DNA of 64,000 nucleotides. It comes from Sphingobacteriales bacterium (GTDB lineage Bacteria > Bacteroidota > Bacteroidia > Chitinophagales > Chitinophagaceae). The stretch covers positions 3,311 to 67,310 of the forward strand of contig JACPUV010000009.1 in NCBI GenBank assembly GCA_016192105.1, in the 5' to 3' direction. Below, piece by piece: positions 11,340 through 47,805 of this stretch. Within the stretch, counting starts at the first letter, position 1. Each line of letters starts with the position of its first letter. The notes beneath the pieces were generated by a model. It searched no databases. It saw only the letters and a list, made by a program, of their open reading frames with translations, and had not been told where the DNA came from. The position numbers and the translations under genes were made by a program.

Positions 11340-11647
11340 TATTTGACAAAGAGGATACTAGAAGATTATGCAGGGTTGAGGGAAGTATAAAAACTATCAG
11401 GAGAGTGTTTTATGACAAGTGGGTGGTTGGTGAAAACTCTCTTAATAATATCAGGGTATTTTTTCAATTTTTCCTGTGGTGATTGTACCCGGGCGAAAAG
11501 TATCCTTTGACTAAGAAGAGTTTATTAAATTCTGTATAGGCATTTTCCGGTTATCAATTGGTAGCTGAAAAATACTTATTCGAAAAAGATGGCATTCTTG
11601 GGGTTTGGGGCAATTATATAATCGTTTTGGAAATTAATTATAGTACT

Positions 11648-14600
11648 ATGTTTTTACAAGCAGGACGCAGGCTGATAATGGCAGCCGTTTTAATGCTGGT
11701 TCATGTAGCCATGTATGCAGGCAATAATCCGGAGTACCGGCAGACTTTGTTTGGAAAAAACGGTCAATTAACGGCGGGGGCGCAGCTTTATACGTTTGAT
11801 ATTAACTATGAAGCCTATAAAAACAGCCCGGGGACTATAGAGAAGACCTGGTATGTAAAAAATGCCGTTCGGTTGATGGTTGACGAGGAAAGCTCCTGGT
11901 TTATAGCGTCAGATTTTATTGCAACGATCAAGCTTAATATTAGTTCAGAAAATGCGGCTGGCGTGGTTACCACTCATCCGCAAAAGACGCTGACTATAAA
12001 TTACAAGACTGGAGAAGGTCAGATTTCGGATGCGATCAGTTCTTATGAATTCCGGGATGCGGTTAAGGTGACTGTTACAATAGCCGAGGCGGTGACAAAA
12101 AATGTTAGTTGGGATGTAACAAAAAATCTGAAGTTGGTAAACGAGATCGTTTCACTTCGGGATTGGGGATTTAATTGCAGTTCAGTGATTAGTGGAATAG
12201 TTACCGATAGTTTGTTTTATGATGAGTGGAAGGTAAAATGGAATGTGCCAGCCAATTTTCAGACAGAGTACGATGTAGAGTGGGCCTGGGTAGATGAGTC
12301 GGCAGTGCCGGAGTATACGTTTAACGGGGTGGTGAATCTGGACAGTGTGTTTGACAATAATGCTACAAGAGTGAGTACTTCGGGTAATTTTTACCGGATT
12401 CCGCTTTTATATGAAGATGAGGGGAGATTGTATATGCGGGTCAGGATGACGCAGGATAAGGTGAACGGACAACGGGTGGAGGGAAACTGGTTTTATCTGA
12501 TGGACGGGGGACAGGCTTATTTGCCAAGAATTGCGGGTCAGGGCCATCAGGATAATCTGAACTGGCAGGCTACAACCTCATATGCGGAGGAAGGCAAGCG
12601 AAAAACGGTTATTCAGTATTTTGACGGCACCCTCCGGGGCAGGCAGACGGTGACAAAGGATAATGTGACCCGCAGTACTGTAGTAGCCGAATCATTTTAT
12701 GATTACCAGGGCAGACCGTTGATCCAGGTGCTACCCTCTCCCACGCTTGGGACGATCTTGCAGTTTACCAAGAACTTCAATCAGTTTGATGATACCCGTA
12801 ATGCAAAAACGGTATATGATAAGCTGGATGTGAATCAAAGTGCCTGTGGTAAGTTAACGGCTGCCATGAAGACCACTGCCACGGGCAGTGCGGCCCAGTA
12901 TTATTCTGGGAGCAATCCATTTGCAAATGACGGATTTAATAAGTTTATTCCGGATGCGGGTGGTTATCCTTATACAGAGACCCGTTACACCCGTGATGGA
13001 ACAGGCCGGATTGATGCACAAGGGGGTGTGGGGCAGGTGTTTCAGGTCAATGGTGGCCGAGATACAAGGTATTTTTATGAGAGTGCAGATCAGGATGATC
13101 TGGATGCCTTATTTGGCACGGATGCCGGGTATGCGTCGCATTATTCAAAGACCTGGGTCAGGGATGCCAATGGACAGTATAGTGTAAGTTATGTTGATAT
13201 GAGGGGCAAAACCGTGGCTACGGCACTTGCAGGGGATAATCCTGGTAATCTTCAGGCCCTGCCATCATATGCCTCAGCTCAAAAGACCATTACCCGCCAA
13301 TTGATTGATGGGGAGACTAATAATGTTCATGGCAATTCAATTGTTTCATCAAAGTCGCTGGTTGTTCCCAAGCAAGGCAGTTATACGTTTAATTATGCAC
13401 TATCTCCTGAGAAGCTAAAACTGCTTCTTTGTAATGGTGTTCAGTTTTGTTTTGATTGTCAGTATGAACTGAATATTAGTATCATACCAGATTGTTCGGA
13501 TAAAGTAATTCCTGGGTTTACAAGTCCTGTGGTAGTTAAGAACTTTACAATAGGAGAATATTTAACCTCCTGTGTGGGAAATAATGCGCCAGGTATAAGT
13601 ACCCAGTTTACGGTAACACTGCCTGAAGGGGGATATACAGTGGTTAAGGAATTAAAAATGAATACGGCTGCCCGGGATTGGTACCGGGAGAATGTGTACC
13701 TGACCAATGACACCTGTAAAACTAAGGCCAGTTTTATACAGCAGCAGTACCAGCTTGCCCTCGGTCAGCAGAACTGTTATACCAGTTGTACGCAGTGTAA
13801 TGCTATCCTGGGTACGGAATCACAGTTTATAGATCGTTTTCGCACGGAGTCCGGGTTTACCCAGGCGCAGATAGATGCGCTGATGCCGCAGTTGCAGGCT
13901 GCGTATGCGGAGGCAAAGGTGGGATGTGATAGAATTTGTGATAATGGAGGTAATGAGACGCTGGATGAATTAAACAGTGTCCGTGAAATCATGCTTCAGG
14001 ATGTTACGCCATTGACGGGACAATATGGACGTTGGGATGAAACTAATCTGACGGTGTCAATGAGGCCATATAATATTTTTAGCTCAGCCCCTCAGGTTAG
14101 TTTTTGCTTGGGAGCTCCGTCAGTGCTCAGGCAGCCTTATCGTTATCCAGTGGATTATTCGGTAGCGACGGGTGCGGTTGTCTGTAATACGGAAGGATAT
14201 AAGAATGGATATGGTCTGGTGACGCTTTCTACGAACAGGGTGCAAAACATAAACTTTACACCCGATAGCCTGGCCGATAATTTTGAGCAGAGCTATGCCT
14301 ATCAACTGTTGCCCTATCATCCAGAGTTTCCAAAGCTGAAATTTGTGGAATCAAATCTGAAGGGAACCTACCGGTTTGGGGGCAGGCTTCTGGGTACAGA
14401 GACCTGGAGCCAGGCGGTTAGCCGTGGTTTTATTCAAAGCAGTACAACGAGTGCCACTGTAGCGGCTGATTTTCTGATGCAAAAAGATTCTTTTTTTATC
14501 AGGACCGGATTTACGCATCCTTTGTATTACCAGATGCGGGATGCCATTACGAGTAATTATATAGCGGCTAATGCGCAGTGTGGTTCACCGGCTCTGGGTA

Positions 14601-17600
14601 TGTGGCAGCTTGCAAAATACAGTGTTTTTTGTAGCAAGGAGATCCGGGAAAACGGAGGCCAGATAGTAAACAATGGCTGTTTTACGGTGAACCCGGTATT
14701 GAGTGCCTGTCTGAATAGTCAGAATAATCTGCCTCCATCCGCGCTGAGTCATTGCGATGCGGATATGGATAGGGTCTGGAAAAATTTTAAAGCGCTTTAC
14801 AACTCTTATCGTAATATCCTGATCAGTAAGTATATAACTGACAATGTCGCTGGAATTGATTACAGCATTTTTGATCCCGCCAGCGGCAATAATTATCAGG
14901 AGCGTTTTGTACGCTATACCAGCACCCCGCCTTACACGCTGATCAATATGAGTGATTTAGGTGGACTTTTTACAAGTAGTGCTGATCCTGGCAGCTATAG
15001 TAATGTATCTTCCCTGGAGGCTGATAGTATATGCCGGTCAAACAGTGGTAACTGGATGATCAGGCTCCGGCGTTGTCCACAGGTACAGACACTGGCACAA
15101 TCACAATCTGCACAATGGATAGCTGACTCAAGTTGGTTAAGCAAATACCTGGTGGACGTGTGTAAACAGGGCGTAGATTATATGGGGCATCCTTTTGGGG
15201 CGGCCAGTGTTCCGGATAGCAAGCCATCTATCCAAATACTTACCAACCCAGATGGTGTATCTGTAAGTGGAGTTTTCGTCCGCAGTTTTCCGGATATAAT
15301 CCGTTATTACCTGATATACCGGTTTGGGAATAATGTAATGAATCAGTTTTGTTACCCGGAGTTGATTGACTATCCCAAGGCGTATAATCAGGCGCCTGCT
15401 ACAGTATCCACACCCATTGTAACAGTTCCGGAGCCATGTGTTTGTGACCGGATAAATTATTATAAAACAAAATGGCAGATGGCCGGCAGTCCCGGAACGT
15501 TTAGTAATTATCTGCTTAACACACAAGGGACCGTGATCAGTGCTGATACGTTGAATATGCTTCTGGGGATGTGTAATACCGGCTATACCACCCAGAGTCC
15601 CAATTGTAATTATTTACCGGCGCCGGTAAAAATCCCGGCAATTTTCCAATGCCGAGGCACAGCCAGCCTTGATTCATCAAAGACCTGTATCTCGTGCGCA
15701 GATTATACAGCGATAAAGCAACAGTTTTTAGCCGAACGGGGGGTAACTGCACCTTACAATACTCCACAAAACGAGACTGAAGTAGCATGGAATCGTTCAT
15801 TTGCAGAATATGCCAACTACCGAACCGGTTTTGGTAAGAACTGGCCGGAGTATGTGCAGTTTGGAATTATATGCGCAAATGACAGTACGTTGAGTTGTAC
15901 TAACCTGACAAGCCTGGTAACGGCTTGGCAGGCAACCAATCCTCCCCAGACTGGCGACAGTTGCCGGAGCAGTTTTACGCAGTATATGAATTATCATACA
16001 GGCCGCAGTTTATCATTTAATCAATGGATGGATGAGTTTGTTAAAGCCTGTGGGGCGAAACCGCCCGTTTGTCAGCCGGTGCTGACTTGCATGAAACTGG
16101 AGTCACTTATTAATTCTTATTATCAGTATTATGGTTATCAGATCTGGCGGAATAGTAATTGTCAGACCCTGTTTACCCAATTTATCAATGATTCCTTGTA
16201 TAGCAATTACACTTACCAGGACATCATAAATAACTACAATTTCCTGTGTGGGGGGGTATGCCCGCTTAATATTTGTAGTTTCCCGAATCCTCATTTGCTG
16301 ACATTGATGTATAATACGTTCCGGACCCAGCAATATCAGGGCGGATGGACACTAACGCAGTGCCAGGATAATTTTACCAGTTGGTTTAATACCCAGTTGG
16401 GCTTTACCTCCAGTCCATATACCTGGACGGGGATTACGGAACTGTATCAATTGTACATGGGTAAGGAGAGTTGTGTGCCGGATATTAATCAGCTTTGTGC
16501 CCCGCCCTATTCGTGCAGTCAGTTGGATTATATCAGACAGCAGTTTTATGCTCAGAATCCGGGAGTAGATAGTTTGAGCAATTGCCAAAGCCTGTTTACA
16601 GCTTATTTTAACCAGCAATTGGGAACAGGGTACAATTTTTCAGAAATCCAGACCCTGTATCAGGCCATTTGTCAGAGTACGCTTTTGGTATGTACAGGAG
16701 CAACGCTGGATTGTAAGGCGATGATTTTGTTTACGCAGACTTATACTCCTTGCGCTTTTGGGGATGAGTGTGTTTGTTTTTTGAATGCCTTTAATACCCA
16801 GTTTGGAACCAGTATTGCAACGTATGCTCTGTTGCAACAGTACTATCTGGATCATTGTGGATTTGTATTGAATATATGTCCGGTGGAATCGCCTGTATTT
16901 ACATGTGAAATGCTTCAGGCGACATTGCAGAAGTTCAATAAACTATATCCCGGTGGTGGCGCTGGCCTGGGGGCAGATTGCCAGCTGTTTTATGCTGCAT
17001 TTTTTAATAATACGTATGCGGTAAAATATTCTTTTTCTGCAATTAATGACCTATACCTCGTGCAATGTGGTCAGGGGTTACAGGTTTGTCAGAGTCAATG
17101 CGGAGAGTATATCAACTTTGTTGATAATTATATGAGCCGCTATGGCGGGTTAAATATTCCTCTGGCAGCCCGCAGACAGCTTTTTGAGAGCCTGTTTAAT
17201 AGTGCTTTTGGTTATACGGGTGGTGCATCTGAGGAAAAAGGAGGTTTTGCCGGAGGAGGAAACAGTCCGCTTGTATATGCACAAATTAAGTCGCTGATGG
17301 CGGGTTGTCTTACTATGCCTTCAAGTCTGGAAGCTGAGAATCTGTATCTCAGTTTAAATGATCCAGCGGTACTTCGGGACTTTAAGACCGCCTATTACCT
17401 GCGTTATCCGGCTGGTGTTCCGCTGGATTGTCAGAACGATTTTGCGGCCTGGGTGAACTGGAGCATGGGGGTAAATATGACGTATTGCCAGTTAATTGAC
17501 TTGTATAACGGCTTGCTGGGAGCGGGTGCTGGTGATATATGCGGGGCCTCACCCATCTGTGCAGGTGCGGGAGCTGTTGATGATGGAAAAGGCATTGTAA

Positions 17601-20600
17601 TCGGTGGTGGAGGCTCTACTGCCGTAAGTTATCCCCCGATGCTTTGCGGGCTGAATGAGGAGATATTTACACCCCCGCCAGTGGACACGAGTACCTGTAA
17701 AGATCCGTTACAGTTTGCCATTCGAGATGCAAATGTGAAGTGGGAACTGTACCTGGATAGTCTGCGGCGCGGTTTTGATACGGCTTATATCAGTAAGTGT
17801 ATGGGAGCCAAGTACCTGGAAAGCTTTACGGTATCGTTTACCCGGTCGGAGCATCATTATACGCTATATTATTATGACCAGGCGGGGCAACTGGTGAGGA
17901 CAGTTCCTCCGGAGGGTGTGGAAGACCGTAGAGCGGATGTGGCGTTTTTAGCTAGTGTAAAATCGGCCAGAAACAGTAATCAGGCAACGCCAGTAAGGCC
18001 GTCTCACAGTCTTGCTACTGATTACCGGTATAATACACTGGGTCAGGTTGTGCAGCAAAAAAGCCCTGATGGCGGGCTCAGTAAGTTCTGGTATGATGCC
18101 CTGGGAAGACTGGTGGTAAGCCAGAACGCTAAACAACTGGCGGAAGGCAAATATAGTTATACACTTTACGACGGCCTTGGCCGTATCAGCGAAGTGGGGC
18201 AAAAGCCGCAGGGAACAGTAATGACGCAGACGATCAGCCGAAACCAGACTTCCCTTGCTGGTTGGATGGCGGCAGGCAGCAGTAAGGAGCAAATAACCAG
18301 AACGGTGTACGACCGGAGCTATTTTGATGGAGATGATCTGCTGAGTCCTGAAAAGCTGTCTCAGCGCAACCTGCGTAACCGGGTAAGTTATACCCAGGTA
18401 TTCGACGTGCAGCCAGCTGCCAATAATTATATTGGTACCCACCGGGCGGCGACCTATTATTCCTATGACATACATGGCAATGTAGATACACTGCTTCAGG
18501 ATTATGGTAGTGCGTCGTACTACCCCAATATCATGAACCAGAATAATAACCGGTATAAAAAAATTGCGTACAACTATGACCTGATCAGTGGGAAGGTAAA
18601 TATGGTGAGTTACCAGCCGGGTTATGTGAATCCGTTAACCGGATTGTGGGTGAATAACGCCGACCGGTTTTATCACCGTTACAGCTATGATGCGGAGAAT
18701 AAGCTTACCGATGTATTTACCAGTCATGATAGTTTGATTTGGGAGCGGGATGCGAGCTACAGTTATTACAAACATGGCCCACTGGCCAGAACGGTACTGG
18801 GTCAGCAGCAGGTACAGGGCATTGACTATGCCTACAACCTGCAAGGATGGCTGAAGGGTGTAAATGCTACGGCGGTTGGTGATGGAACTTATGATATGGG
18901 GCAAGATGGTAAGATTGGAGGTTCTAATGCACTGATAGCCCGTGATGCTTACGGGTTCAGCATGAATTATTTTACAACAACCATTAACAGTGTTGCTGTT
19001 AGCGATTACAAAAGTATAAATACGGGTGTAACGCCTTTTGTAGCAATAAATAATGCTAATGCCAACACAGGGAAGCCCCTTTTTAACGGAAATATCTCGT
19101 CATTTGTCGTAAATATTCCGAAATTAGGTGAAGCAAAAGTCTATCAATACGGGTATGATCAACTGAATCGTTTATTAGCGGTAGATGTATTTGAAGGAAT
19201 AAATATCACCACCAACAACTTTACACCCGTGGCGTTGAATGATTACAAAGAAAGACTGACTTATAGCGCTAACGGCAACATACAATCATATTTACGCAAT
19301 GGCTCAGGTGCAACGGTAAACTTGAACAATTTCAGCTACAGCTATACTAGCGGTACTAACAGGCTTGCCAGTATTAACAATAGTGTCAATACACAAACAA
19401 GAACATACAGCTATGATGCCATTGGCAATACCACTGCCGATGGTATGCAAGGGGCTACCAACATTTTATGGAATGTGTATGGCAAGGTGCAAAGCCTGAC
19501 CAATGGGCAGGGGCAGTCTGTAAGCTACACGTATGATGGAGGTGGAAACCGGATTAGTAAGTCTGTGGCGGGTACAACTGAGTGGTACGTGAGGGATGCC
19601 AGTGGAAATAATATGGCTACTTATACAGAAACCGGGACAATAAACAACGGTAATCTTACTGTGATGGAGTGGTACAAATATGGTAGTGGCCTTCTGAGCA
19701 TCAGTACAATGCGAGTTAATATGGAGCAATCTGCCACTGGAGATATTACTATCATGCAGCGAGGAAATGATGGGTACATCCTGACCGATCACCTTGTGAA
19801 TACTAGGGTTGTGATAACTGACCGGAAGTTGCAACACACAGCTAATGGCACGACGGTGGATTATTATATAACGGATGTGAAAACATCATCTTATTACAGC
19901 AGTTACGGAGCTACTGCAAAGTCATATAATCAACAACCTCTTGTAGCCTTCAACGGTCAGCGAAAGAGCAATGAGATTGGAGCTGATGCGCAAACGGCAT
20001 TGTATTGGGAGTATAATGGGGATGTGGGTAGAAGGTGGAATATTGATCCTATTTATAAGAATAGTCCTTATAGCGTATATGGAGGAAATCCAGTCTGGAA
20101 GATGGATTACAACGGACTTGATACGGTTAGTAATTGGCAGGATGCAAAAAAAGGCGATGTTTGGGGAAATGTACGCGGCAATTCTACTTTTTGGTATGAA
20201 TTTGATGGTGAAAAATGGAACAGCAAAGGGACGACAGAAATAAGCCCACTTCAAGAAATTGTTGTTGTTGCAAAACAAACTGACTCCAAAAAATGGGTTA
20301 ATAGTAATTTTCAATTAGCATTTGTTGGATTAGTTTCAAACAAGACAGCTATTCCAACTATTGAAGCATTGCTTGAAGGAACGGGAGTAAGTTTAGCTGA
20401 AGCCGAATTGTCGTCGTTTAGATTTTTAGGGCCCGCAGCAGCAATTGCCACACTTCCATTTACATTATCGAGCGATAACATATCTCAACCAGATTTAATA
20501 AGGCAGACAGATCAAATTATAAATGAATATTTAAAAAAAGGAGATTTGGCTGGGGCTCAATCTTACATTGAAACTTATAACAGAGATAGAGGAAGGCAAG

Positions 20601-20953
20601 GGTATAGTAAGATAGTATTTAGATATATGTCCCTAGGTGAGTATAATAGTAGGTTAACCCCAGATGGGGATTTGCCACAAGCATTGCCATTTGATGCGTC
20701 TAATGATTTTGTTACAAAGTATATTACGCCAGATATATATTTGACGAGCAAAGGAGCAAAAACATACCTAGCTCTCCCAAGGGCACCAGATATTGCAATT
20801 TGGACATATGAAGTTGAAATAGCAGCTACAAAAATGCCGGCAACAGGTTATCAAATTGTAAAACCAAAACACCGTGAACCTGGTGGTGGCAGGGAAGCAA
20901 CAATCCTACAACCTTTTCCAATCCATGGTTTTTTTCCATTAATACAAGAATAA
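11648..20953 (+). CDS. Giant RHS-repeat polymorphic toxin with Cys-rich insertion and C-terminal toxin tip
   Basis: Likely start ATG 11648 (MFLQAGRRLIMAAVLMLVHVAMYA|G; the track starts at 11558). DUF6443-like QYFDG..R..Q...YDYQGR. YD repeats from about 17850. Core end GRRWNIDP...SPYSVYGGNPVWKMDYNG, followed by a 277-aa variable tip. Confidence 0.85.
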   Translation: MFLQAGRRLIMAAVLMLVHVAMYAGNNPEYRQTLFGKNGQLTAGAQLYTFDINYEAYKNSPGTIEKTWYVKNAVRLMVDEESSWFIASDFIATIKLNISSENAAGVVTTHPQKTLTINYKTGEGQISDAISSYEFRDAVKVTVTIAEAVTKNVSWDVTKNLKLVNEIVSLRDWGFNCSSVISGIVTDSLFYDEWKVKWNVPANFQTEYDVEWAWVDESAVPEYTFNGVVNLDSVFDNNATRVSTSGNFYRIPLLYEDEGRLYMRVRMTQDKVNGQRVEGNWFYLMDGGQAYLPRIAGQGHQDNLNWQATTSYAEEGKRKTVIQYFDGTLRGRQTVTKDNVTRSTVVAESFYDYQGRPLIQVLPSPTLGTILQFTKNFNQFDDTRNAKTVYDKLDVNQSACGKLTAAMKTTATGSAAQYYSGSNPFANDGFNKFIPDAGGYPYTETRYTRDGTGRIDAQGGVGQVFQVNGGRDTRYFYESADQDDLDALFGTDAGYASHYSKTWVRDANGQYSVSYVDMRGKTVATALAGDNPGNLQALPSYASAQKTITRQLIDGETNNVHGNSIVSSKSLVVPKQGSYTFNYALSPEKLKLLLCNGVQFCFDCQYELNISIIPDCSDKVIPGFTSPVVVKNFTIGEYLTSCVGNNAPGISTQFTVTLPEGGYTVVKELKMNTAARDWYRENVYLTNDTCKTKASFIQQQYQLALGQQNCYTSCTQCNAILGTESQFIDRFRTESGFTQAQIDALMPQLQAAYAEAKVGCDRICDNGGNETLDELNSVREIMLQDVTPLTGQYGRWDETNLTVSMRPYNIFSSAPQVSFCLGAPSVLRQPYRYPVDYSVATGAVVCNTEGYKNGYGLVTLSTNRVQNINFTPDSLADNFEQSYAYQLLPYHPEFPKLKFVESNLKGTYRFGGRLLGTETWSQAVSRGFIQSSTTSATVAADFLMQKDSFFIRTGFTHPLYYQMRDAITSNYIAANAQCGSPALGMWQLAKYSVFCSKEIRENGGQIVNNGCFTVNPVLSACLNSQNNLPPSALSHCDADMDRVWKNFKALYNSYRNILISKYITDNVAGIDYSIFDPASGNNYQERFVRYTSTPPYTLINMSDLGGLFTSSADPGSYSNVSSLEADSICRSNSGNWMIRLRRCPQVQTLAQSQSAQWIADSSWLSKYLVDVCKQGVDYMGHPFGAASVPDSKPSIQILTNPDGVSVSGVFVRSFPDIIRYYLIYRFGNNVMNQFCYPELIDYPKAYNQAPATVSTPIVTVPEPCVCDRINYYKTKWQMAGSPGTFSNYLLNTQGTVISADTLNMLLGMCNTGYTTQSPNCNYLPAPVKIPAIFQCRGTASLDSSKTCISCADYTAIKQQFLAERGVTAPYNTPQNETEVAWNRSFAEYANYRTGFGKNWPEYVQFGIICANDSTLSCTNLTSLVTAWQATNPPQTGDSCRSSFTQYMNYHTGRSLSFNQWMDEFVKACGAKPPVCQPVLTCMKLESLINSYYQYYGYQIWRNSNCQTLFTQFINDSLYSNYTYQDIINNYNFLCGGVCPLNICSFPNPHLLTLMYNTFRTQQYQGGWTLTQCQDNFTSWFNTQLGFTSSPYTWTGITELYQLYMGKESCVPDINQLCAPPYSCSQLDYIRQQFYAQNPGVDSLSNCQSLFTAYFNQQLGTGYNFSEIQTLYQAICQSTLLVCTGATLDCKAMILFTQTYTPCAFGDECVCFLNAFNTQFGTSIATYALLQQYYLDHCGFVLNICPVESPVFTCEMLQATLQKFNKLYPGGGAGLGADCQLFYAAFFNNTYAVKYSFSAINDLYLVQCGQGLQVCQSQCGEYINFVDNYMSRYGGLNIPLAARRQLFESLFNSAFGYTGGASEEKGGFAGGGNSPLVYAQIKSLMAGCLTMPSSLEAENLYLSLNDPAVLRDFKTAYYLRYPAGVPLDCQNDFAAWVNWSMGVNMTYCQLIDLYNGLLGAGAGDICGASPICAGAGAVDDGKGIVIGGGGSTAVSYPPMLCGLNEEIFTPPPVDTSTCKDPLQFAIRDANVKWELYLDSLRRGFDTAYISKCMGAKYLESFTVSFTRSEHHYTLYYYDQAGQLVRTVPPEGVEDRRADVAFLASVKSARNSNQATPVRPSHSLATDYRYNTLGQVVQQKSPDGGLSKFWYDALGRLVVSQNAKQLAEGKYSYTLYDGLGRISEVGQKPQGTVMTQTISRNQTSLAGWMAAGSSKEQITRTVYDRSYFDGDDLLSPEKLSQRNLRNRVSYTQVFDVQPAANNYIGTHRAATYYSYDIHGNVDTLLQDYGSASYYPNIMNQNNNRYKKIAYNYDLISGKVNMVSYQPGYVNPLTGLWVNNADRFYHRYSYDAENKLTDVFTSHDSLIWERDASYSYYKHGPLARTVLGQQQVQGIDYAYNLQGWLKGVNATAVGDGTYDMGQDGKIGGSNALIARDAYGFSMNYFTTTINSVAVSDYKSINTGVTPFVAINNANANTGKPLFNGNISSFVVNIPKLGEAKVYQYGYDQLNRLLAVDVFEGINITTNNFTPVALNDYKERLTYSANGNIQSYLRNGSGATVNLNNFSYSYTSGTNRLASINNSVNTQTRTYSYDAIGNTTADGMQGATNILWNVYGKVQSLTNGQGQSVSYTYDGGGNRISKSVAGTTEWYVRDASGNNMATYTETGTINNGNLTVMEWYKYGSGLLSISTMRVNMEQSATGDITIMQRGNDGYILTDHLVNTRVVITDRKLQHTANGTTVDYYITDVKTSSYYSSYGATAKSYNQQPLVAFNGQRKSNEIGADAQTALYWEYNGDVGRRWNIDPIYKNSPYSVYGGNPVWKMDYNGLDTVSNWQDAKKGDVWGNVRGNSTFWYEFDGEKWNSKGTTEISPLQEIVVVAKQTDSKKWVNSNFQLAFVGLVSNKTAIPTIEALLEGTGVSLAEAELSSFRFLGPAAAIATLPFTLSSDNISQPDLIRQTDQIINEYLKKGDLAGAQSYIETYNRDRGRQGYSKIVFRYMSLGEYNSRLTPDGDLPQALPFDASNDFVTKYITPDIYLTSKGAKTYLALPRAPDIAIWTYEVEIAATKMPATGYQIVKPKHREPGGGREATILQPFPIHGFFPLIQE

Positions 20954-21643: not shown

Positions 21644-21701
21644 CAAAAAAAAGCCGCGCCGGAGCGAGGGGAAGTAAACCACTAATTAACGGCTAATACA
21701 A

Positions 21702-22112
21702 CTATCTTTTTTTCAGCATTTCTTCCAATAGGGCCACTTTTTGCTTTTCGGATTCCAGGAGGCGCTCATACAATTTTTTAATTTCTTCTAATGATTCAAG
21801 CCATTTTTCGATGGGATTAATGGAATAATGATTTATGTAGTTCGCTCCTTGGTTTTGCGATCCCTCATAATTGTTCTGGATATTAAAAACCGCGACTTCC
21901 TCATCAAAATTTATCAGCGCTTCTGCCGGTACTTTTAGTGCTTTTGCAATTTTTTCCAGGAGCTCGGGTTCAATCACTTCTTTTTGTTCCAGCAGGGAGA
22001 TTTTTTTTTGAGTCCAGTCATCGCCCAGTTCAATGGCAAGGCCTTCTTGTTTGAAGCCAAGCATTTCTCTAAACCGTTTGATATTTTTACCCTGGTGAAT
22101 GATTTTTTCCAT
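21702..22112 (-). CDS. XRE-family HTH transcriptional regulator (Bacteroidota type)
   Basis: MEKIIHQGKNIKRFREMLGFKQEGLAIELGDDWTQKKISLLEQKE...IAKAL.VP. Likely start 22112 (track 22166). Confidence 0.9.
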   Translation of the reverse strand: MEKIIHQGKNIKRFREMLGFKQEGLAIELGDDWTQKKISLLEQKEVIEPELLEKIAKALKVPAEALINFDEEVAVFNIQNNYEGSQNQGANYINHYSINPIEKWLESLEEIKKLYERLLESEKQKVALLEEMLKKR

Positions 22113-22270
22113 ATCGACTAATGGTTTTGAATAGTCAAATATACTAAAATCTAAAAGCAGCCGCAAAAGCGGCTAAATTACCGGTTGGAATAACTATGTT
22201 ACCTGCGTTTTGCATGGATTACTGTATTAGTCATCCTGAATTTTAGAAAAAAAAGGTATGGCAACTGATT

Positions 22271-22740
22271 CACTACAAGGATGTAAAACCTTTTATGAAG
22301 GACCTGCAGGGCGTATACCGGGCAACGACCAAGGAACAGGCAGAACGCAGCCTTGATCAGGTAGCTACAAACTGGGGGCAACGTTATCCCAATGTAATTG
22401 AGTCATGGAGAAAGAACTGGCCGAGGCTCAGCAATTACTTCCATTACAACAAAGAGATCCGACGCATCATGTACACTACCAACATCATCGAAGGTTTCCA
22501 TCGTCAGCTCAGGGCTGTAACCAAGACCAAAGTGGCCTTCCAAAGTGAAGATGCATTGATGAAACTGCTGTTCCTGGTACAAGAAAACATAACAGCCAAG
22601 TGGAATAAACCGGTACACAACCTGCCTGACGGCATGCAGGTTGGAACCAGACCATGGCTCAGTTATCGATAATCTTTGGAGAAAGACTTAAATTGAGTAT
22701 CTAAGTAAATGAAAACTGACACAGTTTATGTAATACTACC
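22271..22740 (+). pseudogene. IS256-family transposase 3' remnant with probable right end
   Basis: YKDVKPFMKDLQGVYRA...WGQRYP...YTTNIIEGFHRQLR. The true C-terminus WNQTMAQLSIIFGERLKLSI* is frameshifted by a 20-bp insert. Ends ...TGACACAGTTTATGTAATACTACC, resembling an IS256 terminal repeat. Confidence 0.85.
22621..22640. repeat. 20-bp palindromic element, copy 1 (cctgcctgacggcatgcagg)
   Basis: Removing exactly these 20 nt restores CAC AAT TGG AAC (HNWN) of the IS256 frame. Confidence 0.85.
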
Positions 22741-22742
22741 CC

Positions 22743-23360
22743 AGATCAGCAACCAAGTTGAAGCGATGAAAAAGAAAGGGGCTGCACAGGGTGTACAAAT
22801 AAATACGCATGCCGCTTCTGCGGAAAGTAAAAAAGCGTTTACCAGCAAAATTTAAAGAGCCACTGGCTTTACCCTCCGGGTTTACGCATTCTTGGAGTAC
22901 TGATTCCTGCCAGCCGGAAGGCTGGTTATGAGTGATGCATTGAATAACGGTATAAAGTTCCGTTAGTTTAACTTGATTGACAACTATAACCGGGAAGTAC
23001 TCTATATTGAATCAGATTACTCACTTAAAAGTAGCCTGGTAATCTGTGTGCTAAAACACTTAATTAAACGTTACGGCAAGCCTGAAAGCATAAGGATGAA
23101 CAATGGGCCGGAGTTCGTGGCAAAATTGGCACAGACATGGAGCTTAGCCAAAGAGTTTGAATTTAAGTATATACAACCCGGCAAGCCGATGCAGAAAGCT
23201 TATTTCGAACAGTTCAATTAAACATACCGGGAAGCGTGTTGGATGCTTACCTGTTCGATACCCTGGATATGGCACGAGAGGTAACGGCAAAAGGACTGAG
23301 GATTATAATACTAGCTGGCCTCGGGATGCCTTAGGTGGTATGCCCCTCGAAAGCCTATAG
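22743..23360 (+). pseudogene. IS3-family transposase (integrase core) remnant
   Basis: HRVYK...RKVKKRLPAK.KEPL...WSTDF|MSDALNNG.KFRSFNLIDNYNRE...NGPEF...IQPGKPMQ...DYN, broken by a 20-bp insert, a stop at 23219-23221 and frameshifts. Confidence 0.85.
22906..22925. repeat. 20-bp palindromic element, copy 2 (cctgccagccggaaggctgg)
   Basis: Removing these 20 nt restores TGG AGT ACT GAT TTT ATG AGT GAT (WSTDFMSD), in frame with ORF 22973. Three mismatches to the perfect palindrome. Confidence 0.8.
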
Positions 23361-23488
23361 GGAAAAAATCAGCCGCCTGCTGGGGCTACGCCTTCGCTCC
23401 ATTTCACCCAGCAGTATCAGGGTAGAGGAGAATTTGCACTTTAGGTATTCATTTACTGCTGTTTACAAGAAAACAGCTTGAAAGCTTA

Positions 23489-24550
23489 ATGAGTAAACTT
23501 ACCTGTATCATATTTATGTCTATTCATTTCGACAATATTACTATATTTGTCGAAATGAATAGACATAATATTTTTCAGAGCCATGTCAGCACATTTAATC
23601 TAGAGGCTGTGACAATGCGGCTAAAGGATGACTGGAAAGGTTTTTTCCGGGATTTTGAGGCTTTTTCGAAACGTGAACTAACTTTAACAGAAGCCGAACT
23701 CGGTATTGACAGGAAGCTTCTTTATGTCTGGAAAAAGCAAGGTTTATTACCATATTCCGGAGATTCAAGTGATAAGAGCAATAATAAAATATGGGGGCGT
23801 TTCAGTTTTATTGAACTCTGTTGGCTTAAAATGCTGATTGAGTTTAGAAAAGTGGGGCTTGGTATGGAGAAATTAAAAGAAATTAAGAACTTTTTTTTCA
23901 AAAAAGAATTTCTGAATGATTTTTTTAATGTACCGGTATCAGAATTGGAAAAGCGAGCACCCGAGGTGATGAAGATGAGCGAGGACCTTGGACTATTTCA
24001 TGAAGGTCAATTTGTACTTACGGAAGATATAAGGAGGTTCTTGGAAGAAATTCAGCTCAGCCTTTTTTCTGTTTTTTTGTATGCTACGATGTTGTCCAGA
24101 AATAATTTTTTATTATATATTGACGGGAAAGGGCATTTTGACGTAGTTGACCTCAACAAGGTTTTTTCTGATCCCGTTGCAGGAGTGGCTGAATTTCATC
24201 AATTATTAAATTCCGAATCTGTAGTGTTCATAAATATTAAAAAAATAATAGCGGATTTGTCGGATTCACATGAGTATTTTTCAAAAAAGCCTCATTTTGG
24301 TCACAAGATGGCCGAAACTTCGGTAAATCTACTCCGGCAATTCTTTCTTGACGATCGGGTAAAGGAAGTGTCAATGCGTATAAGTGAGAAAGGTAGACCG
24401 AATGTCTGGATAACAAGAGAAATGCAGTTAAATGATCTAGAGAAGGAGTTTCGTCTCCAATCTAAAAAAGGAAAATTTTGCGACTTGGTGGTAAAGATGC
24501 GTGACGGCAAAGTTCAATATTTTGAGCACACGGAAATTTTGAAACTCTGA
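23489..24550 (+). CDS. MerR-like HTH protein of an integrative element
   Basis: GIDRKLLYVWKKQGLLP...GRFSFIELCWLKMLIEFRKVGLGMEKLKEIK fits a MerR-type winged HTH. The real start is probably later (23554 or 23615). Confidence 0.65.
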   Translation: MSKLTCIIFMSIHFDNITIFVEMNRHNIFQSHVSTFNLEAVTMRLKDDWKGFFRDFEAFSKRELTLTEAELGIDRKLLYVWKKQGLLPYSGDSSDKSNNKIWGRFSFIELCWLKMLIEFRKVGLGMEKLKEIKNFFFKKEFLNDFFNVPVSELEKRAPEVMKMSEDLGLFHEGQFVLTEDIRRFLEEIQLSLFSVFLYATMLSRNNFLLYIDGKGHFDVVDLNKVFSDPVAGVAEFHQLLNSESVVFINIKKIIADLSDSHEYFSKKPHFGHKMAETSVNLLRQFFLDDRVKEVSMRISEKGRPNVWITREMQLNDLEKEFRLQSKKGKFCDLVVKMRDGKVQYFEHTEILKL

Positions 24551-24638
24551 ATTTAATATTGTGCTGAAGATCTCAGCCTGATTATAAACCTGAATGCCCT
24601 GCGGGAGTTCCCCGTTGGCAATCCCAATCATTTTAAAA

Positions 24639-24818
24639 ATGAGCAGGGATAAAAAAGTTCATTCTGAGCGGCCGCTGGTCGACGCGAAGGGTGATATTAT
24701 TTTTGAAAGCAAACATGATTTTGAACAAAATGATGACATCCAACTAGAATTATTTTCTGAAATAATACTCGAAATTTTTATTAAAAATCAAAGTAGCGAT
24801 GAACAGAAACATGAATGA
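24639..24818 (+). CDS. Small acidic protein overlapping the recombinase start
   Basis: 59 aa from ATG 24639 (MSRDKK...QLELFSEIILEIFIK...), overlapping the recombinase ORF by 20 nt. Confidence 0.4.
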   Translation: MSRDKKVHSERPLVDAKGDIIFESKHDFEQNDDIQLELFSEIILEIFIKNQSSDEQKHE

Positions 24819-26472
24819 CTTTGAGTCGGCGTTAGAGAAACTTACCAGTTTACGACACCGGTCAAACCGGAAGGTCAGGGGTGGGGATGCTGTGGTGTAC
24901 ACCCGGGTGAGCAGCCAGGAGCAGGCACAAAACAATGGTAGCCTTGAAGTACAACGTAAATACTGTGATACGTATTCAGTGACCAATAAAATCGCGGTAG
25001 GGGCCTATTTTGGAGGTACATTTGAAAGTGCTAAGACCGATGGACGCAAAGAGTTTAAACGGATGCTGGATTATGTCTGGAAGCATAAAAATATTTCCTA
25101 CATCATCGTCTTTAATTACGACAGGTTTTCCAGGAGCGGTGCGGCTGCCTCGCATATTAGTGAGGAACTAAGCAAGGACGGAGTAACCGTTAAATCCGTG
25201 ACGCAAGACATCGATACATCAACTGCAATTGGCAGGTTGCAGGAGAACTTTTTTCACCTGCTCAATAATTTTGACAACCGACTTAAAAGCGACCGGACAA
25301 CCATCAATACAAGGGAAGTAATGCTGAAAGGATATTGGCCTTATGCCACGCCTTTGGGCTATAGAAATTTGAAACCAAAGCACCGGGCTTGTTTTCATGA
25401 ATATGAGATTACAGATGCAGGCAGGGAGCTTAAAAAGGGTTTTTTGATGATTGCCTGTCAAAAATACCTGTTTAATGAGGTGGTGGAATATCTGCGAAAA
25501 AGGGGGGTGGATATAACGACGAAGAGTTTCAGGCATGTGTTCAGCAATCCTTTTTATGCCGGTTTTGTTACGGGAAAGTTGGTTGGAGGTAAATTAATTA
25601 AGGGAATGCACCCGCCTTTATTGGATATTAAAACATTTATGGCGGTGCAGGCAGTCCTTAACGAAAACCCTATAGCTGGTGTACCCAAACTATCAAGGCA
25701 CGACCAGGTACCGCTAAAATCCTTCGCCAGAGACGCTAATAGCGGATTGCCATTTACTGGCTATAAATCCAAGGGTAACTGGTATTACAAAATAAAAGAA
25801 GGCCCCAAACCCGTTAATATTAACGCAAAACAGCTGAATAGTCTTTTTCTACAGATGTTAGCTAATTATGAGTACAGGCCTGATGTTAGTATAAAACTGA
25901 AGGATTTGCTGACTGATAAACTAAAACAGAGGCTCTCCGCCCAGTCAAATGGGGTAGCTCAAATAAAAAAGAAATTGAGTGAGCAAAAAAAGTTGCTTGA
26001 AAAGGTGGAACATAAGTTTATAACCGACCAGATTAGTGAAGAAATTTACCAAAAACATGCTGGGAAAATAGGCGCGGAAATTGCTGAGTTAAACAACGAG
26101 ATCTGTGCTCAGAGTTTTAGCAGTTCGAACCTTGAAAAAGCGGTCAATAAATGTTTGTTGATTGCACAGAATCTAAGCCAGTCGTGGGTTTCAGCGGAAT
26201 ATGAGAATAAGCAACGGCTGCAAAAACTGGTATTTCCGGACGGAATCCTGTATAACAAGGAAAAAGGGGTGGTGCGAACTCCAAGAGTCAACAGTCTTTT
26301 CGCTGTAATCCCGCTACTGTCGGGGATTACAGCCGAAATGAAAGAAGGCGATCCTGAACGGAATCGCCTGTTTTCTGGTAAAGTGCCCAAGACTGGATTC
26401 GAACCAGCACAACCTTTCGGTCACTACCACCTCAAAGTAGCGTGTCTACCAATTTCACCACCTGGGCATTAA
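24799..26472 (+). CDS. Large serine recombinase (resolvase + recombinase + coiled coil)
   Basis: AVVYTRVSSQEQ catalytic motif, DRFSR, GYWPYATPLGY, NPFYAG, H.PL, coiled coil. The last ~30 codons lie antisense over tRNA-Leu. Confidence 0.92.
   Translation: MNRNMNDFESALEKLTSLRHRSNRKVRGGDAVVYTRVSSQEQAQNNGSLEVQRKYCDTYSVTNKIAVGAYFGGTFESAKTDGRKEFKRMLDYVWKHKNISYIIVFNYDRFSRSGAAASHISEELSKDGVTVKSVTQDIDTSTAIGRLQENFFHLLNNFDNRLKSDRTTINTREVMLKGYWPYATPLGYRNLKPKHRACFHEYEITDAGRELKKGFLMIACQKYLFNEVVEYLRKRGVDITTKSFRHVFSNPFYAGFVTGKLVGGKLIKGMHPPLLDIKTFMAVQAVLNENPIAGVPKLSRHDQVPLKSFARDANSGLPFTGYKSKGNWYYKIKEGPKPVNINAKQLNSLFLQMLANYEYRPDVSIKLKDLLTDKLKQRLSAQSNGVAQIKKKLSEQKKLLEKVEHKFITDQISEEIYQKHAGKIGAEIAELNNEICAQSFSSSNLEKAVNKCLLIAQNLSQSWVSAEYENKQRLQKLVFPDGILYNKEKGVVRTPRVNSLFAVIPLLSGITAEMKEGDPERNRLFSGKVPKTGFEPAQPFGHYHLKVACLPISPPGH
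26384..26467 (-). tRNA. tRNA-Leu(GAG)
   Basis: Minus strand GCCCAGGTGGTGAAATTGGTAGACACGCTACTTTGAGGTGGTAG...GGTTCGAATCC...CTTGGGCA. Anticodon GAG, long variable arm. Confidence 0.95.
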
Positions 26473-26710
26473 AATAAGAACTAAAGCATTTTTCGTCATA
26501 ACGTATTCTGACCAGCCACTCGTCGCGGCGGTCACTACCACCTCAAAGTAGCGTGTCAACCAACCTGCCTGCCGGCAGGCAGGTTTCACCACCTGGGCAT
26601 TAAAATAAGAACTAAAACATATTTCATCATTGCGAATTCGGACCAGCCATCCTCCGCCTTGGTCACTACCGCCCCAACGGGTTTGCCGGCCGGATTCATC
26701 ACCCGGGTGA
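26418..26710 (-). repeat. Tandem 111-bp repeats containing degenerate tRNA-Leu copies
   Basis: ggtcactacc recurs at 26419, 26530 and 26661 (spacing 111 and 111+20). Copy 2 keeps the 5' ~50 nt of the tRNA with one mismatch plus a 20-bp insert. Confidence 0.85.
26564..26583. repeat. 20-bp palindromic element, copy 3 (perfect: cctgcctgccggcaggcagg)
   Basis: Inserted at ccaa|tttcacc relative to the intact tRNA copy 111 bp away; no target duplication. Confidence 0.9.
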
Positions 26711-26720
26711 CTTTTAGGAC

Positions 26721-29452: not shown

Positions 29453-29538
29453 GCCCTGGTGGTGGAATTGGTAGACACGCAGGACTTAAAATCCTGTGGC
29501 CAGCAATGGCCGTATCGGTTCAACTCCGATCCGGGGCA
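29453..29538 (+). tRNA. tRNA-Leu(TAA)
   Basis: GCCCTGGTGGTGGAATTGGTAGACAC...CAGGA CTTAAAA TCCTG, long variable arm, ...CCGGGGCA. Confidence 0.95.
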
Positions 29539-29544
29539 CTTGTT

Positions 29545-29576
29545 AGCCAGCTTTTTTAGAAAGGCTGGCTATTTTT
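29545..29576 (+). terminator. Hairpin/terminator after the tRNA pair
   Basis: agccagcttt...aaggctggct stem followed by attttt. Confidence 0.55.
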
Positions 29577-29714
29577 GTATATATACTTTACTCACAAAAG
29601 CTGAAGAAATTCTATACTGGAACAACAACTGAAGTTGAAAGACGTCTTGCCGGGCACAACTCAGGGGTTTATGAAGACCCATTTACTTTCAGGCAACGAT
29701 TAATTAGCCGGTAA
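29565..29714 (+). pseudogene. Truncated GIY-YIG nuclease (not in the ORF track)
   Basis: Hand translation LAIFVYILYSQKLKKFYTGTTTEVERRLAGHNSGVYEDPFTFRQRLISR* carries the VYIL...YTG...RL..HN.G motif but has no ATG and is only about half length. Confidence 0.7.
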
Positions 29715-47361: not shown

Positions 47362-47805
47362 TCAGGCAATCAGCTCATTATCCAAGCCGTGCATCCGCAG
47401 GAAATGATTGAATTCTTCCCGGTAGGTTTTTTTCAGGTGATGTATCTTCTGTTCCTGGATATAATGCTGAATCCATTCCATGGCGGAGGCCCCGACTGAA
47501 TAAACGGCATAGCCTTTCTGCCAGGCAAATTTTTCCGGCAGCATCCCCTGTGTATTGATCCATTGCGAGCTGCTTCCCTTAACCTGTTTGATGACATCGG
47601 AAATTGACTTCAGCGGATTCTGCCGGAACAGGCAATGCACATGATCGGGCATTCCATTGATGATCCGTACCGGGCAGCCGGTTTCTTCAAATTTACAGGC
47701 CAGGAACTGATGAACCGCTTTTTCAATGGGAGGGAGGATGAACGGGTTTCGGTCCCGGGTGGACCAGATGGCATGGATCCAGATACTGGGTAATGAATGA
47801 AACAT
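47362..47805 (-). mobile_element. tnpA: IS200/IS605-family Y1 transposase (solo tnpA)
   Basis: H..WST..R, HUH motif DHVH, KG.SS, FAWQ.GY...SV, helix Tyr in HYIQEQ. No tnpB nearby. Confidence 0.88.

Follow-up and report, generated by a model that had tools for sequence, protein, structure and literature searches.

The 64,000-nt stretch of Sphingobacteriales contig JACPUV010000009.1 analysed here (the window; the genome containing it is called G000) raises the question of how one and the same 20-bp palindrome, CCTGCCTGCCGGCAGGCAGG, came to stand three times in its degenerate genes. We call this palindrome PAL20. A preliminary description, made from the letters of the window alone, had proposed that it is an ultra-short mobile or templated insertion, with either a GIY-YIG nuclease or a Y1 transposase as the candidate enzyme. 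Our analysis indicates that PAL20 is almost certainly a real, repeatedly inserted element, and that a small GIY-YIG nuclease could tentatively be assigned to it as a partner.

Exact insertion into degenerate genes

CCTGCCTGCCGGCAGGCAGG was matched three times in the window at up to three mismatches (at 26564, 22621 and 22906), against an expectation of 0.01 from shuffles of the window, and this pattern match reproduced the three copies with 0, 2 and 3 mismatches that had been reported earlier. All three are entered without a strand. The copy with two mismatches (22621..22640) lies within the C-terminal relic of an IS256/Mutator-family insertion sequence (IS) transposase (22253..22701, plus strand; PF00872 positions 275-378), and the copy with three mismatches (22906..22925) lies within the relic of an IS3-family integrase core with internal stops (22839..23218, plus strand; rve domain, PF00665). 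The perfect copy (26564..26583) occupies the D-loop of a dead tRNA-Leu copy. This host, unit B, is a degenerate copy of tRNA-Leu(GAG) (26492..26598, minus strand), which has retained its acceptor, D-arm and anticodon arm and whose variable and T arms have decayed; it stands just upstream of the intact tRNA-Leu(GAG) gene (26383..26467, minus strand). Further upstream is unit A (26625..26711, minus strand), an older and more decayed tRNA-Leu-like copy, which possibly contains a decayed palindrome, TCCGGCCGGCAAACCCG. The window thus holds two PAL20 copies decaying in dead IS genes and a third that marks a dead tRNA-Leu 5′ copy.

Deletion of exactly 20 nt rejoined both transposase frames, giving a continuous IS256/Mutator-type C-terminus at 22621 (...AKWNKPVHN|WNQTMAQLSIIFGERLKLSI*) and an uninterrupted stretch of the IS3-type rve domain at 22906 (...FTHSWSTDF|MSDALNNGIKFR). 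In unit B, the palindrome splits GGTGAAA|TTGGTTGACACGC, and the intact gene at 26383-26467 has GGTGAAATTGGTAGACACGC. The earlier statement that such a deletion restores the ancestral sequence was borne out for both transposase frames, and the three junctions (caa|tt, caa|tt and att|tt) are as described there. No target duplication was found at these sites or at the empty/filled pairs elsewhere in G000.

The empty sites that the preliminary description had recommended looking for are present in relatives for all three window sites and for several other sites of G000. An IS256 homologue of genome G018 (contig C116) lacks exactly 20 nt at the site of the 22621 copy, and moving the register by one base matches this empty site even better. 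Two IS3 homologues (G060:C21 and G004:C4) lack exactly 20 nt at the site of the 22906 copy, and the orthologous unit B of G018 lacks exactly the 20 nt of the perfect PAL20. In most congeners, the tRNA-Leu gene directly adjoins the histidine-kinase gene, with no extra units A and B. No paralogues of the two IS relics were found elsewhere in G000. Outside the window, G000, G018 and G075 have a palindrome at C26:122209 (C26a), a promoter-region site at which G017, G011 and G043 have none; the site C38:89052 is filled in G000, G018 and G075; and C19, C26:155935 (C26b), C6:240762 (C6c, a 16-nt derivative) and C8 are filled in G000 only. Because the filled and empty patterns differ among congeners, the insertions occurred on different branches.

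These distributions bear on the alternative that PAL20 is a host-functional motif (a terminator, a protein-binding site or an RNA hairpin) kept by selection. Retention of the promoter-region copy C26a in three species would agree with it, as would the variants that hold the stem and vary the centre; yet copies also lie in dead IS genes, coding frames and junk repeats, they are gained and lost in a lineage-specific manner, and no Rfam family matches PAL20, which together make selection for a host function scarcely credible.

Copies can also be accommodated within genes. At C8:27315-27335, a Y1-like gene contains a 21-nt derivative of the palindrome that keeps the reading frame; it separates W-A-D from V-F-T and adds LPCRQAG to the protein, four homologues of which are empty; in a metagenome-assembled genome (MAG) of the Chitinophagales (L082:3490), a perfect 20-mer occupies the same codon boundary of a Y1-like homologue.

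Two conventional descriptions of the insertions were tried and rejected. The flanking repeat measured 0-1 bp at 88% of 163 sites, with a 7-bp direct repeat at five of the 163. At least two of these five (L113 and L094) lie in arrays of several heptamer units, and a similar short-repeat array is already present at the empty site in the comparison of G018 with G000 at C6:240762. A fixed target duplication was rejected, since the 7-bp spike is rare and at least some of its sites lie in heptamer arrays. A miniature inverted-repeat transposable element, which would have terminal inverted repeats, a fixed target duplication and a size above about 50 bp, was rejected on the missing target duplication at empty/filled pairs and on the absence from G000 of any longer element bounded by half-sites, the search for a parent element between two half-sites having returned only chance or unrelated pairs there.

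Family size and distribution

Further copies, which had been proposed for counting genome-wide, were readily found. In G000 (3.85 Mb), PAL20 is matched perfectly 5 times; allowing one mismatch raises the count to 8 and allowing three raises it to 16, and we judge about 13-16 copies to be real. PAL20 is the only recurring perfect palindrome in this genome. Its half-site, CCTGCCTGCC, occurs 80 times in G000 against about 7 expected, an excess that reveals related sequences in which the stem is kept and the centre differs. Among the congeners, 19 of 24 carry between 1 and 59 copies, with a count of zero for the reversed control.

A scan for the exact 20-mer in one genome per species (596 Gb) gave more than 120 stretches among the matches listed, against about 0.5 expected. 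Represented among these listed matches were Patescibacteria, Omnitrophota, Planctomycetota, Bacteroidota (isolates too), Gamma- and 'Delta'-proteobacteria, Bdellovibrionales, Thermodesulfovibrio and Chloroflexi, and PAL20 is present in more than ten bacterial phyla. Five of the cross-phylum genomes hold 8, 14, 14, 26 and 37 copies, and 35 stretches of viral contigs contain the 20-mer. By far the commonest variant is the one-mismatch form CCTGCCTGCCGGTAGGCAGG, which accounts for 11 of 15 one-mismatch copies in G021 and for 6 of the 8 listed in G024, and which is also found in G080 and G081. This form retains a G-T wobble on one strand only and could be used as an orientation marker. Neither the 20-mer nor its 14-mer core was found in the literature searched.

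A perfect palindrome recurring in many metagenome assemblies is in itself suspicious, and an adapter, a linker or another sequencing or assembly artefact might be blamed for it. Against this stand the decayed copies with two or three mismatches, the orthologous copies in three independently assembled species, with substitutions of their own and a nested insert, the in-frame 21-nt derivative, and the occurrence of the 20-mer in isolate genomes and in one MAG assembled to a complete chromosome; on this comparative evidence, the chance of an artefact is practically negligible.

Target sites

No conservation was found outside the 20 bp of the cross-phylum copies. In 248 half-flanks from many phyla, only position -1 was informative (A 41%, T 9%; 0.16 bit), A at -1 and T at +1 being weakly favoured, and the suggestion of an AT-rich target with TT always on the 3′ side did not survive this comparison. 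The genomic context was more informative when random sites in the same loci were taken as controls: an intact tRNA gene lay within 150 bp of 11% of the palindrome sites versus 1.2% of the controls (odds ratio 10.7, p = 3e-8), a perfect 6-bp stem abutted the junction at 8.1% versus 1.8% (p = 1e-4), and short tandem-repeat DNA surrounded 14% versus 1.9% (odds ratio 8.3, p = 2e-9). A cruder minimum-free-energy fold test showed no effect, with 22.8% of sites in a loop versus 21.0%. General hairpin-loop targeting was rejected on this fold test and is kept as a minority preference, since stems abutting the junction are enriched 3-5x, but for only 8-16% of sites.

The 16 perfect copies of the Thermodesulfovibrio genome G081 all lie within two host repeat families. 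In one of them, the palindrome always follows the 5′ arm of a hairpin, GTCATTCCACGA|CTTGA TCGGGGAATCCAGG; three or more sub-variants have it at this same 5′-arm|loop junction, and no fewer than 45 further copies of the hairpin are empty. The host hairpin matches the published NTS/SRM motif (PMC11893778), and the location of the palindrome inside such NTS/SRM-like hairpins implies that PAL20 and NTS/SRM are distinct elements. At locus L184 (G081:C9, ~6044), a perfect palindrome stands beside a decayed one (CCTGCTTACCGATAGGTAGG) at the same NTS/SRM-like hairpin junction, as if this target had been hit twice.

The palindrome can in turn receive insertions. At four or more loci in G018 and G075, its position 11|9 is occupied by a second mini-element, GCCCGCTTCGCNGCGAGGCGA, which measures 21 nt (L134 and L135, the tRNA-Leu-like copies of G018 and G075; L191, G018:C139; and L243, G075:C31), and sister genomes have the plain 20-mer at the sites concerned. 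In other phyla, second copies of the palindrome occupy the same position 11|9. Motifs of the form GCCTCGCGGCGAAGCGA, related to GCCCGCTTCGCNGCGAGGCGA, crowd contig C5 of G000 near 67700.

Copies embedded in tRNA genes

At least nine further hairpin copies of G000 lie in degenerate tRNA copies adjoining intact tRNA genes, with hosts that include the D-loops of tRNA-Asn (C12) and tRNA-Arg(TCT) (C38) and the T-loops of two tRNA-Cys copies (C15). Among these hosts, at C36:1396-1560, three tandem 82-bp dead 5′ copies of tRNA-Arg(CCT) adjoin the intact gene, and each of them has the loop variant CCTGCCTGCCGAAGAGGCAGG in its D-loop. An intact tRNA copy was seen alongside every tRNA-embedded palindrome examined in G000, and removal of the palindrome at G000 sites restored no full tRNA according to ARAGORN; the hosts are therefore truncated or degenerate copies. 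Among 125 cross-phylum sites, one (L042) lay inside a gene that ARAGORN still called as a tRNA after palindrome removal, and an intact tRNA-Val directly follows this palindrome-bearing gene. A tRNA intron, whether of the archaeal bulge-helix-bulge type or of group I, finds no support in these sites. In viral tRNA-Met (L286:2239-2330 and L263:8616), the palindrome lies in the variable loop and ARAGORN still calls a 92-nt tRNA, in which the hairpin, to judge from the sequence, may be tolerated as an extra arm. The proposal that copies are retained only where frameshifts are tolerated thus holds in so far as most of them lie in dispensable DNA, but it is too strict for the in-frame 21-nt derivative and for this viral tRNA-Met copy.

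Other hairpins also occupy loops of dead tRNA copies. The variable arm of unit B (26515-26535) contains a decayed 12-14-bp palindrome, (T)CCGCCGCGGCGG(A), which is intact in G018 and G075. It takes the place of the variable loop in tRNA-Leu-like copies and also replaces the D-loop of two dead tRNA-Cys copies (G000 C15:3910-3925 and 4055-4070), and it looks like a further hairpin family of dead tRNA loops. In G000 at C20:59700-60130, a different small GIY-YIG gene follows an intact tRNA-Ala(GGC) and is in turn followed by a dead tRNA-Ala 3′ copy, the anticodon loop of which is replaced by the hairpin TCCCGATGTATATCGGGA.

Association with a small GIY-YIG nuclease

Clustering of the open reading frames (ORFs) at about 120 cross-phylum loci identified GIY-YIG nucleases as the only family recurring beside the palindrome, at a median distance of 13 bp. 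The layout in G000 is found on C38, where a dead tRNA-Arg(TCT) 5′ fragment with the palindrome is followed by 22 nt, an ORF (C38:89094-89345) for an 84-residue GIY-YIG protein and the intact tRNA. The C38 protein (84 aa) matches PF01541 over positions 1-70; among solved structures, UPF0213 proteins and the structure-specific nuclease Slx1 come closest to it, and it had no match above cut-off among the NCBIfam models. In relatives, all seven homologues at least 52% identical to it (7/7) have PAL20 22-45 nt upstream. PAL20, or PAL20 with a nested insert, stands on one side only of the GIY-YIG gene, and in all seven cases it lies between tRNA positions 21 and 22 (D-loop/D-stem) of a dead 5′ fragment, which is followed by the ORF and the intact tRNA. 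The hosts are tRNA-Arg(TCT), tRNA-Arg(ACG) and tRNA-Leu(CAA). None of 23 more distant small GIY-YIG genes had a palindrome. In a 400-genome phylum sample, the palindrome was present at 14 of the 41 top GIY-YIG copies, and the same geometry of palindrome and GIY-YIG gene was found in other phyla and on one viral contig.

Unit B may link the window to these cassettes. The palindrome of tRNA-Leu cassettes lies at GGCGGAA|TTGGTAGAC, and the position of the palindrome in unit B, GGTGAAA|TTGG, is that in the tRNA-Leu-linked GIY-YIG cassettes L301, L304 and L310, so that unit B resembles what would remain of the left end of such a cassette after its insertion at a tRNA gene. The window also contains a truncated small GIY-YIG gene (29574..29669, plus strand), directly after tRNA-Leu(TAA) at 29453-29539, which is of another type than the clade linked to the palindrome and is not accompanied by PAL20. 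The earlier suggestion of a GIY-YIG enzyme is supported in that this family is the only one recurring beside the palindrome.

A Y1 transposase as a candidate mobilising enzyme

The second candidate was a Y1 transposase, and PAL20 could accordingly be viewed as a repetitive extragenic palindromic (REP)-type element moved by an enzyme of the REP-associated tyrosine transposase (RAYT) or IS200-like kind. PAL20 has the size and the hairpin shape of a REP, Y1_Tnp genes are present in G000, including an IS200-like one in the window (47449..47787, minus strand; G000:C2:50759-51097), and in one congener a palindrome copy lies 45 bp upstream of an IS200-like gene. However, no Y1_Tnp match was found in the palindrome-rich genomes G079, G081, G011 and G005, each with 3-37 copies (counted at up to one mismatch in G011 and G005 and up to two in G079 and G081). 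A Y1 gene lay within 8 kb at 3 of about 120 cross-phylum loci, and one of the three is a palindrome inserted into the gene, as is the copy on C8. Moreover, PAL20 has no conserved flanking tetranucleotide, and REP sequences are lineage-specific, whereas PAL20 is invariant across phyla. The Y1/RAYT partner was rejected for this lack of co-occurrence and of adjacency beyond these few loci, and the REP-type reading is highly improbable.

Possible mechanism and its alternatives

Exact insertions, empty sites, gains on different branches, identity across phyla and a fixed geometry beside the nuclease gene are the observations on which a mechanism has to be judged. In the mechanism that we propose, PAL20 in single-stranded DNA (ssDNA) would fold into a perfect hairpin, which a single-domain GIY-YIG nuclease of about 80 residues, by working analogy with the Ssn nucleases, would recognise in ssDNA. 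The nuclease would cut at stem-loop junctions, host polymerase and ligase would complete the insertion, and PAL20 would enter tolerant DNA as one exact unit that leaves the target unduplicated. Our confidence differs among the parts of this proposal. Taken as a whole and with the nuclease partner included, the account of PAL20 as a non-autonomous mini insertion element appears evenly poised between right and wrong. The small GIY-YIG nuclease is a plausible but tentative choice for the mobilising or recognising enzyme, and single-stranded hairpin DNA is a possible, rather doubtful substrate. That the hairpin and the ~80-residue GIY-YIG nuclease form a previously undescribed transposable system, pasting at stem-loop junctions and chiefly at tRNA loops, is unlikely, although we would not dismiss it.

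The distribution of the nuclease gene argues both ways. Among 40 relatives, the palindrome and the small GIY-YIG gene co-occur (17/5 versus 5/13, p = 0.0035) with an odds ratio of 8.8, a value that ignores phylogeny and genome size, and four of five distant palindrome-rich genomes carry a small GIY-YIG gene. The co-occurrence that the preliminary description had proposed to test is seen among the relatives but breaks down in G081: this genome holds 37 copies, 16 being perfect, yet its one GIY-YIG match is of UvrC size and a small gene of the family was not found. Several further points weigh against the proposed partnership and its substrate. A GIY-YIG gene is near only ~4-6% of palindromes, and the palindrome is missing beside many GIY-YIG genes of broadly the same type. 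Five palindrome-positive congeners show no such gene, four of them being less than 90% complete. Four of the seven close homologues occupy the same tRNA-Arg(TCT) locus, so that their uniform association partly reflects shared descent. About 80-90% of insertion sites show no obvious hairpin, and GIY-YIG enzymes hydrolyse DNA and have, to our knowledge, no strand-transfer activity.

Such points leave room for the alternative that some other enzyme, or host replication and repair, spreads the palindrome and that the GIY-YIG link is incidental. For example, hairpin oligonucleotides could be captured at nicks in single-stranded DNA, and tRNA-lodged cassettes would leave dead 5′ fragments whose D-loops are favoured landing sites. 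This alternative would account for the many perfect copies in G081, which has neither a small GIY-YIG nor a Y1 gene, for the more than 90% of palindrome copies that are solo, for the presence of the palindrome also in other tRNA loops (T, anticodon and variable) and in hairpins outside tRNA sequences, and for cassettes that have the GIY-YIG gene downstream of an intact tRNA and no palindrome. It does not predict that every close GIY-YIG homologue has the palindrome, at one fixed tRNA position and in three tRNA species, nor that no other gene family recurs near it, and a host-general process hardly explains one invariant 20-mer in more than ten phyla. We regard it as a minority explanation, less likely than not by a clear measure, that deserves to be taken seriously.

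The nuclease could also be involved in a different way, with the palindrome being a repair scar or an immunity patch at GIY-YIG cut sites. The on-target site would then be the tRNA D-loop at 21|22, copies elsewhere would mark off-targets, and each new palindrome would arise when break repair used an older copy as its source, not by transposition of a free unit. Its fixed place about 10 nt upstream of the end of tRNA homology fits this explanation, as do the arrays of dead tRNA fragments with a hairpin in each and the fresh perfect copy beside a decayed one at the same target at L184 of G081. However, the insertion flanks have no homology to any donor able to template repair, the boundaries are always exact, and copies are abundant in G081, a genome without the nuclease; we consider a scar or patch improbable.

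A gene-less unit of 20 bp that inserts exactly and is identical across phyla and viral contigs would define how small mobile DNA can be, and would bring to light a recognition system shared by horizontal transfer. If the system of hairpin and nuclease were true, no smaller mobile DNA element than PAL20 would be known, and this one would have spread over more than ten phyla and into phages. If the GIY-YIG partner were true, the Ssn-type ssDNA nucleases would be extended to a tRNA-gene-invading lifestyle, and a compact hairpin-specific enzyme for work on ssDNA would become available. In practice, PAL20 disrupts reading frames, lengthens proteins by seven codons, gives tRNA-like genes additional arms, and misleads tRNA finders and gene callers, of which annotators should be aware.

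Other features of the window

A large serine recombinase frame of 557 residues with Resolvase and Recombinase domains extends over 24799-26472 (plus strand) and overlaps the intact tRNA-Leu(GAG) (26383-26467, minus strand) on the opposite strand. A helix-turn-helix gene and the two IS relics lie upstream of this frame, and the region 21700-26470 may be an integrated element with tRNA-Leu(GAG) as its site. A single open frame of 3131 residues (11558-20953, plus strand) ends just upstream of the studied region.

Comparison with known systems

The closest published analogue of the pair of PAL20 and GIY-YIG gene is, by resemblance, the Ssn family. Its members are GIY-YIG enzymes that act on ssDNA only and are associated, in different phyla, with NTS/SRM hairpin repeats (Chenal et al., Nat Commun 2025; PMC11893778), and the authors themselves point out the likeness of these repeats to insertion sequences (PMC11893778). 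Their paper contains neither 'tRNA' nor 'CCTGCC' or 'GGCAGG', and it reports no exact filled-versus-empty insertions into genes (PMC11893778). In both systems, a single-domain GIY-YIG protein of ~80-95 residues goes with a GC-rich hairpin repeat, many copies of which are scattered through genomes of different phyla, and in both the repeat adjoins the nuclease gene. They differ in that NTS/SRM is oriented, about 30 nt long and dependent on non-palindromic flanks for cutting, whereas the 20 bp of PAL20 form a perfect palindrome and nothing is conserved beside them. On the protein side, the Ssn nucleases are of CDD family cd10448, and the C38 protein was compared via PF01541, UPF0213 and Slx1.

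REP elements, their doublets (REPINs) and the RAYT enzymes (PMC3116915) resemble PAL20 in being short, GC-rich, hairpin-forming extragenic palindromes that are non-autonomous and present in many copies. PAL20 differs from them in having no association with a RAYT (Y1) gene. Doublets are the mobile unit of REP/REPIN, with a conserved tetranucleotide at the foot of the hairpin, whereas PAL20 occurs as single 20-bp units with no conserved flank; REPs are species-specific, whereas PAL20 is identical across phyla and is also inserted inside genes.

In size and manner of insertion, PAL20 is reminiscent of the small dispersed repeats (SDR) SDR1-8 of heterocystous cyanobacteria, which Elhai et al. are said to have described in 2008 and which reportedly form exact insertions of 21-27 nt, often nested in other repeats. 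We know of no enzyme for SDR1-8 and of no link between them and a nuclease gene or tRNA. Judged by that description, their sequences differ from that of PAL20, and they are confined to one cyanobacterial group. The phage T4 Seg proteins are free-standing GIY-YIG homing endonucleases with added DNA-binding domains and no companion palindrome. Likeness to such homing cassettes is limited to the tRNA-linked copies of PAL20, which share with them a small GIY-YIG gene wedged at a tRNA gene, presence or absence among congeners and arrays of dead target fragments; homing cannot account for the solo 20-bp copies at unrelated sites. The GC clusters of fungal mitochondria are likewise short GC-rich palindromes without coding capacity, which are found in AT-richer DNA and in genes. 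They are, in contrast to PAL20, organellar and lineage-specific, usually accompanied by short target duplications and not identical across phyla. Hairpin repeats tied to small GIY-YIG nucleases are of a general kind that has already been published, and PAL20 differs from the known ones in being a perfect palindrome without flanks that is inserted exactly into genes, marks tRNA-lodged cassettes and is invariant across phyla.

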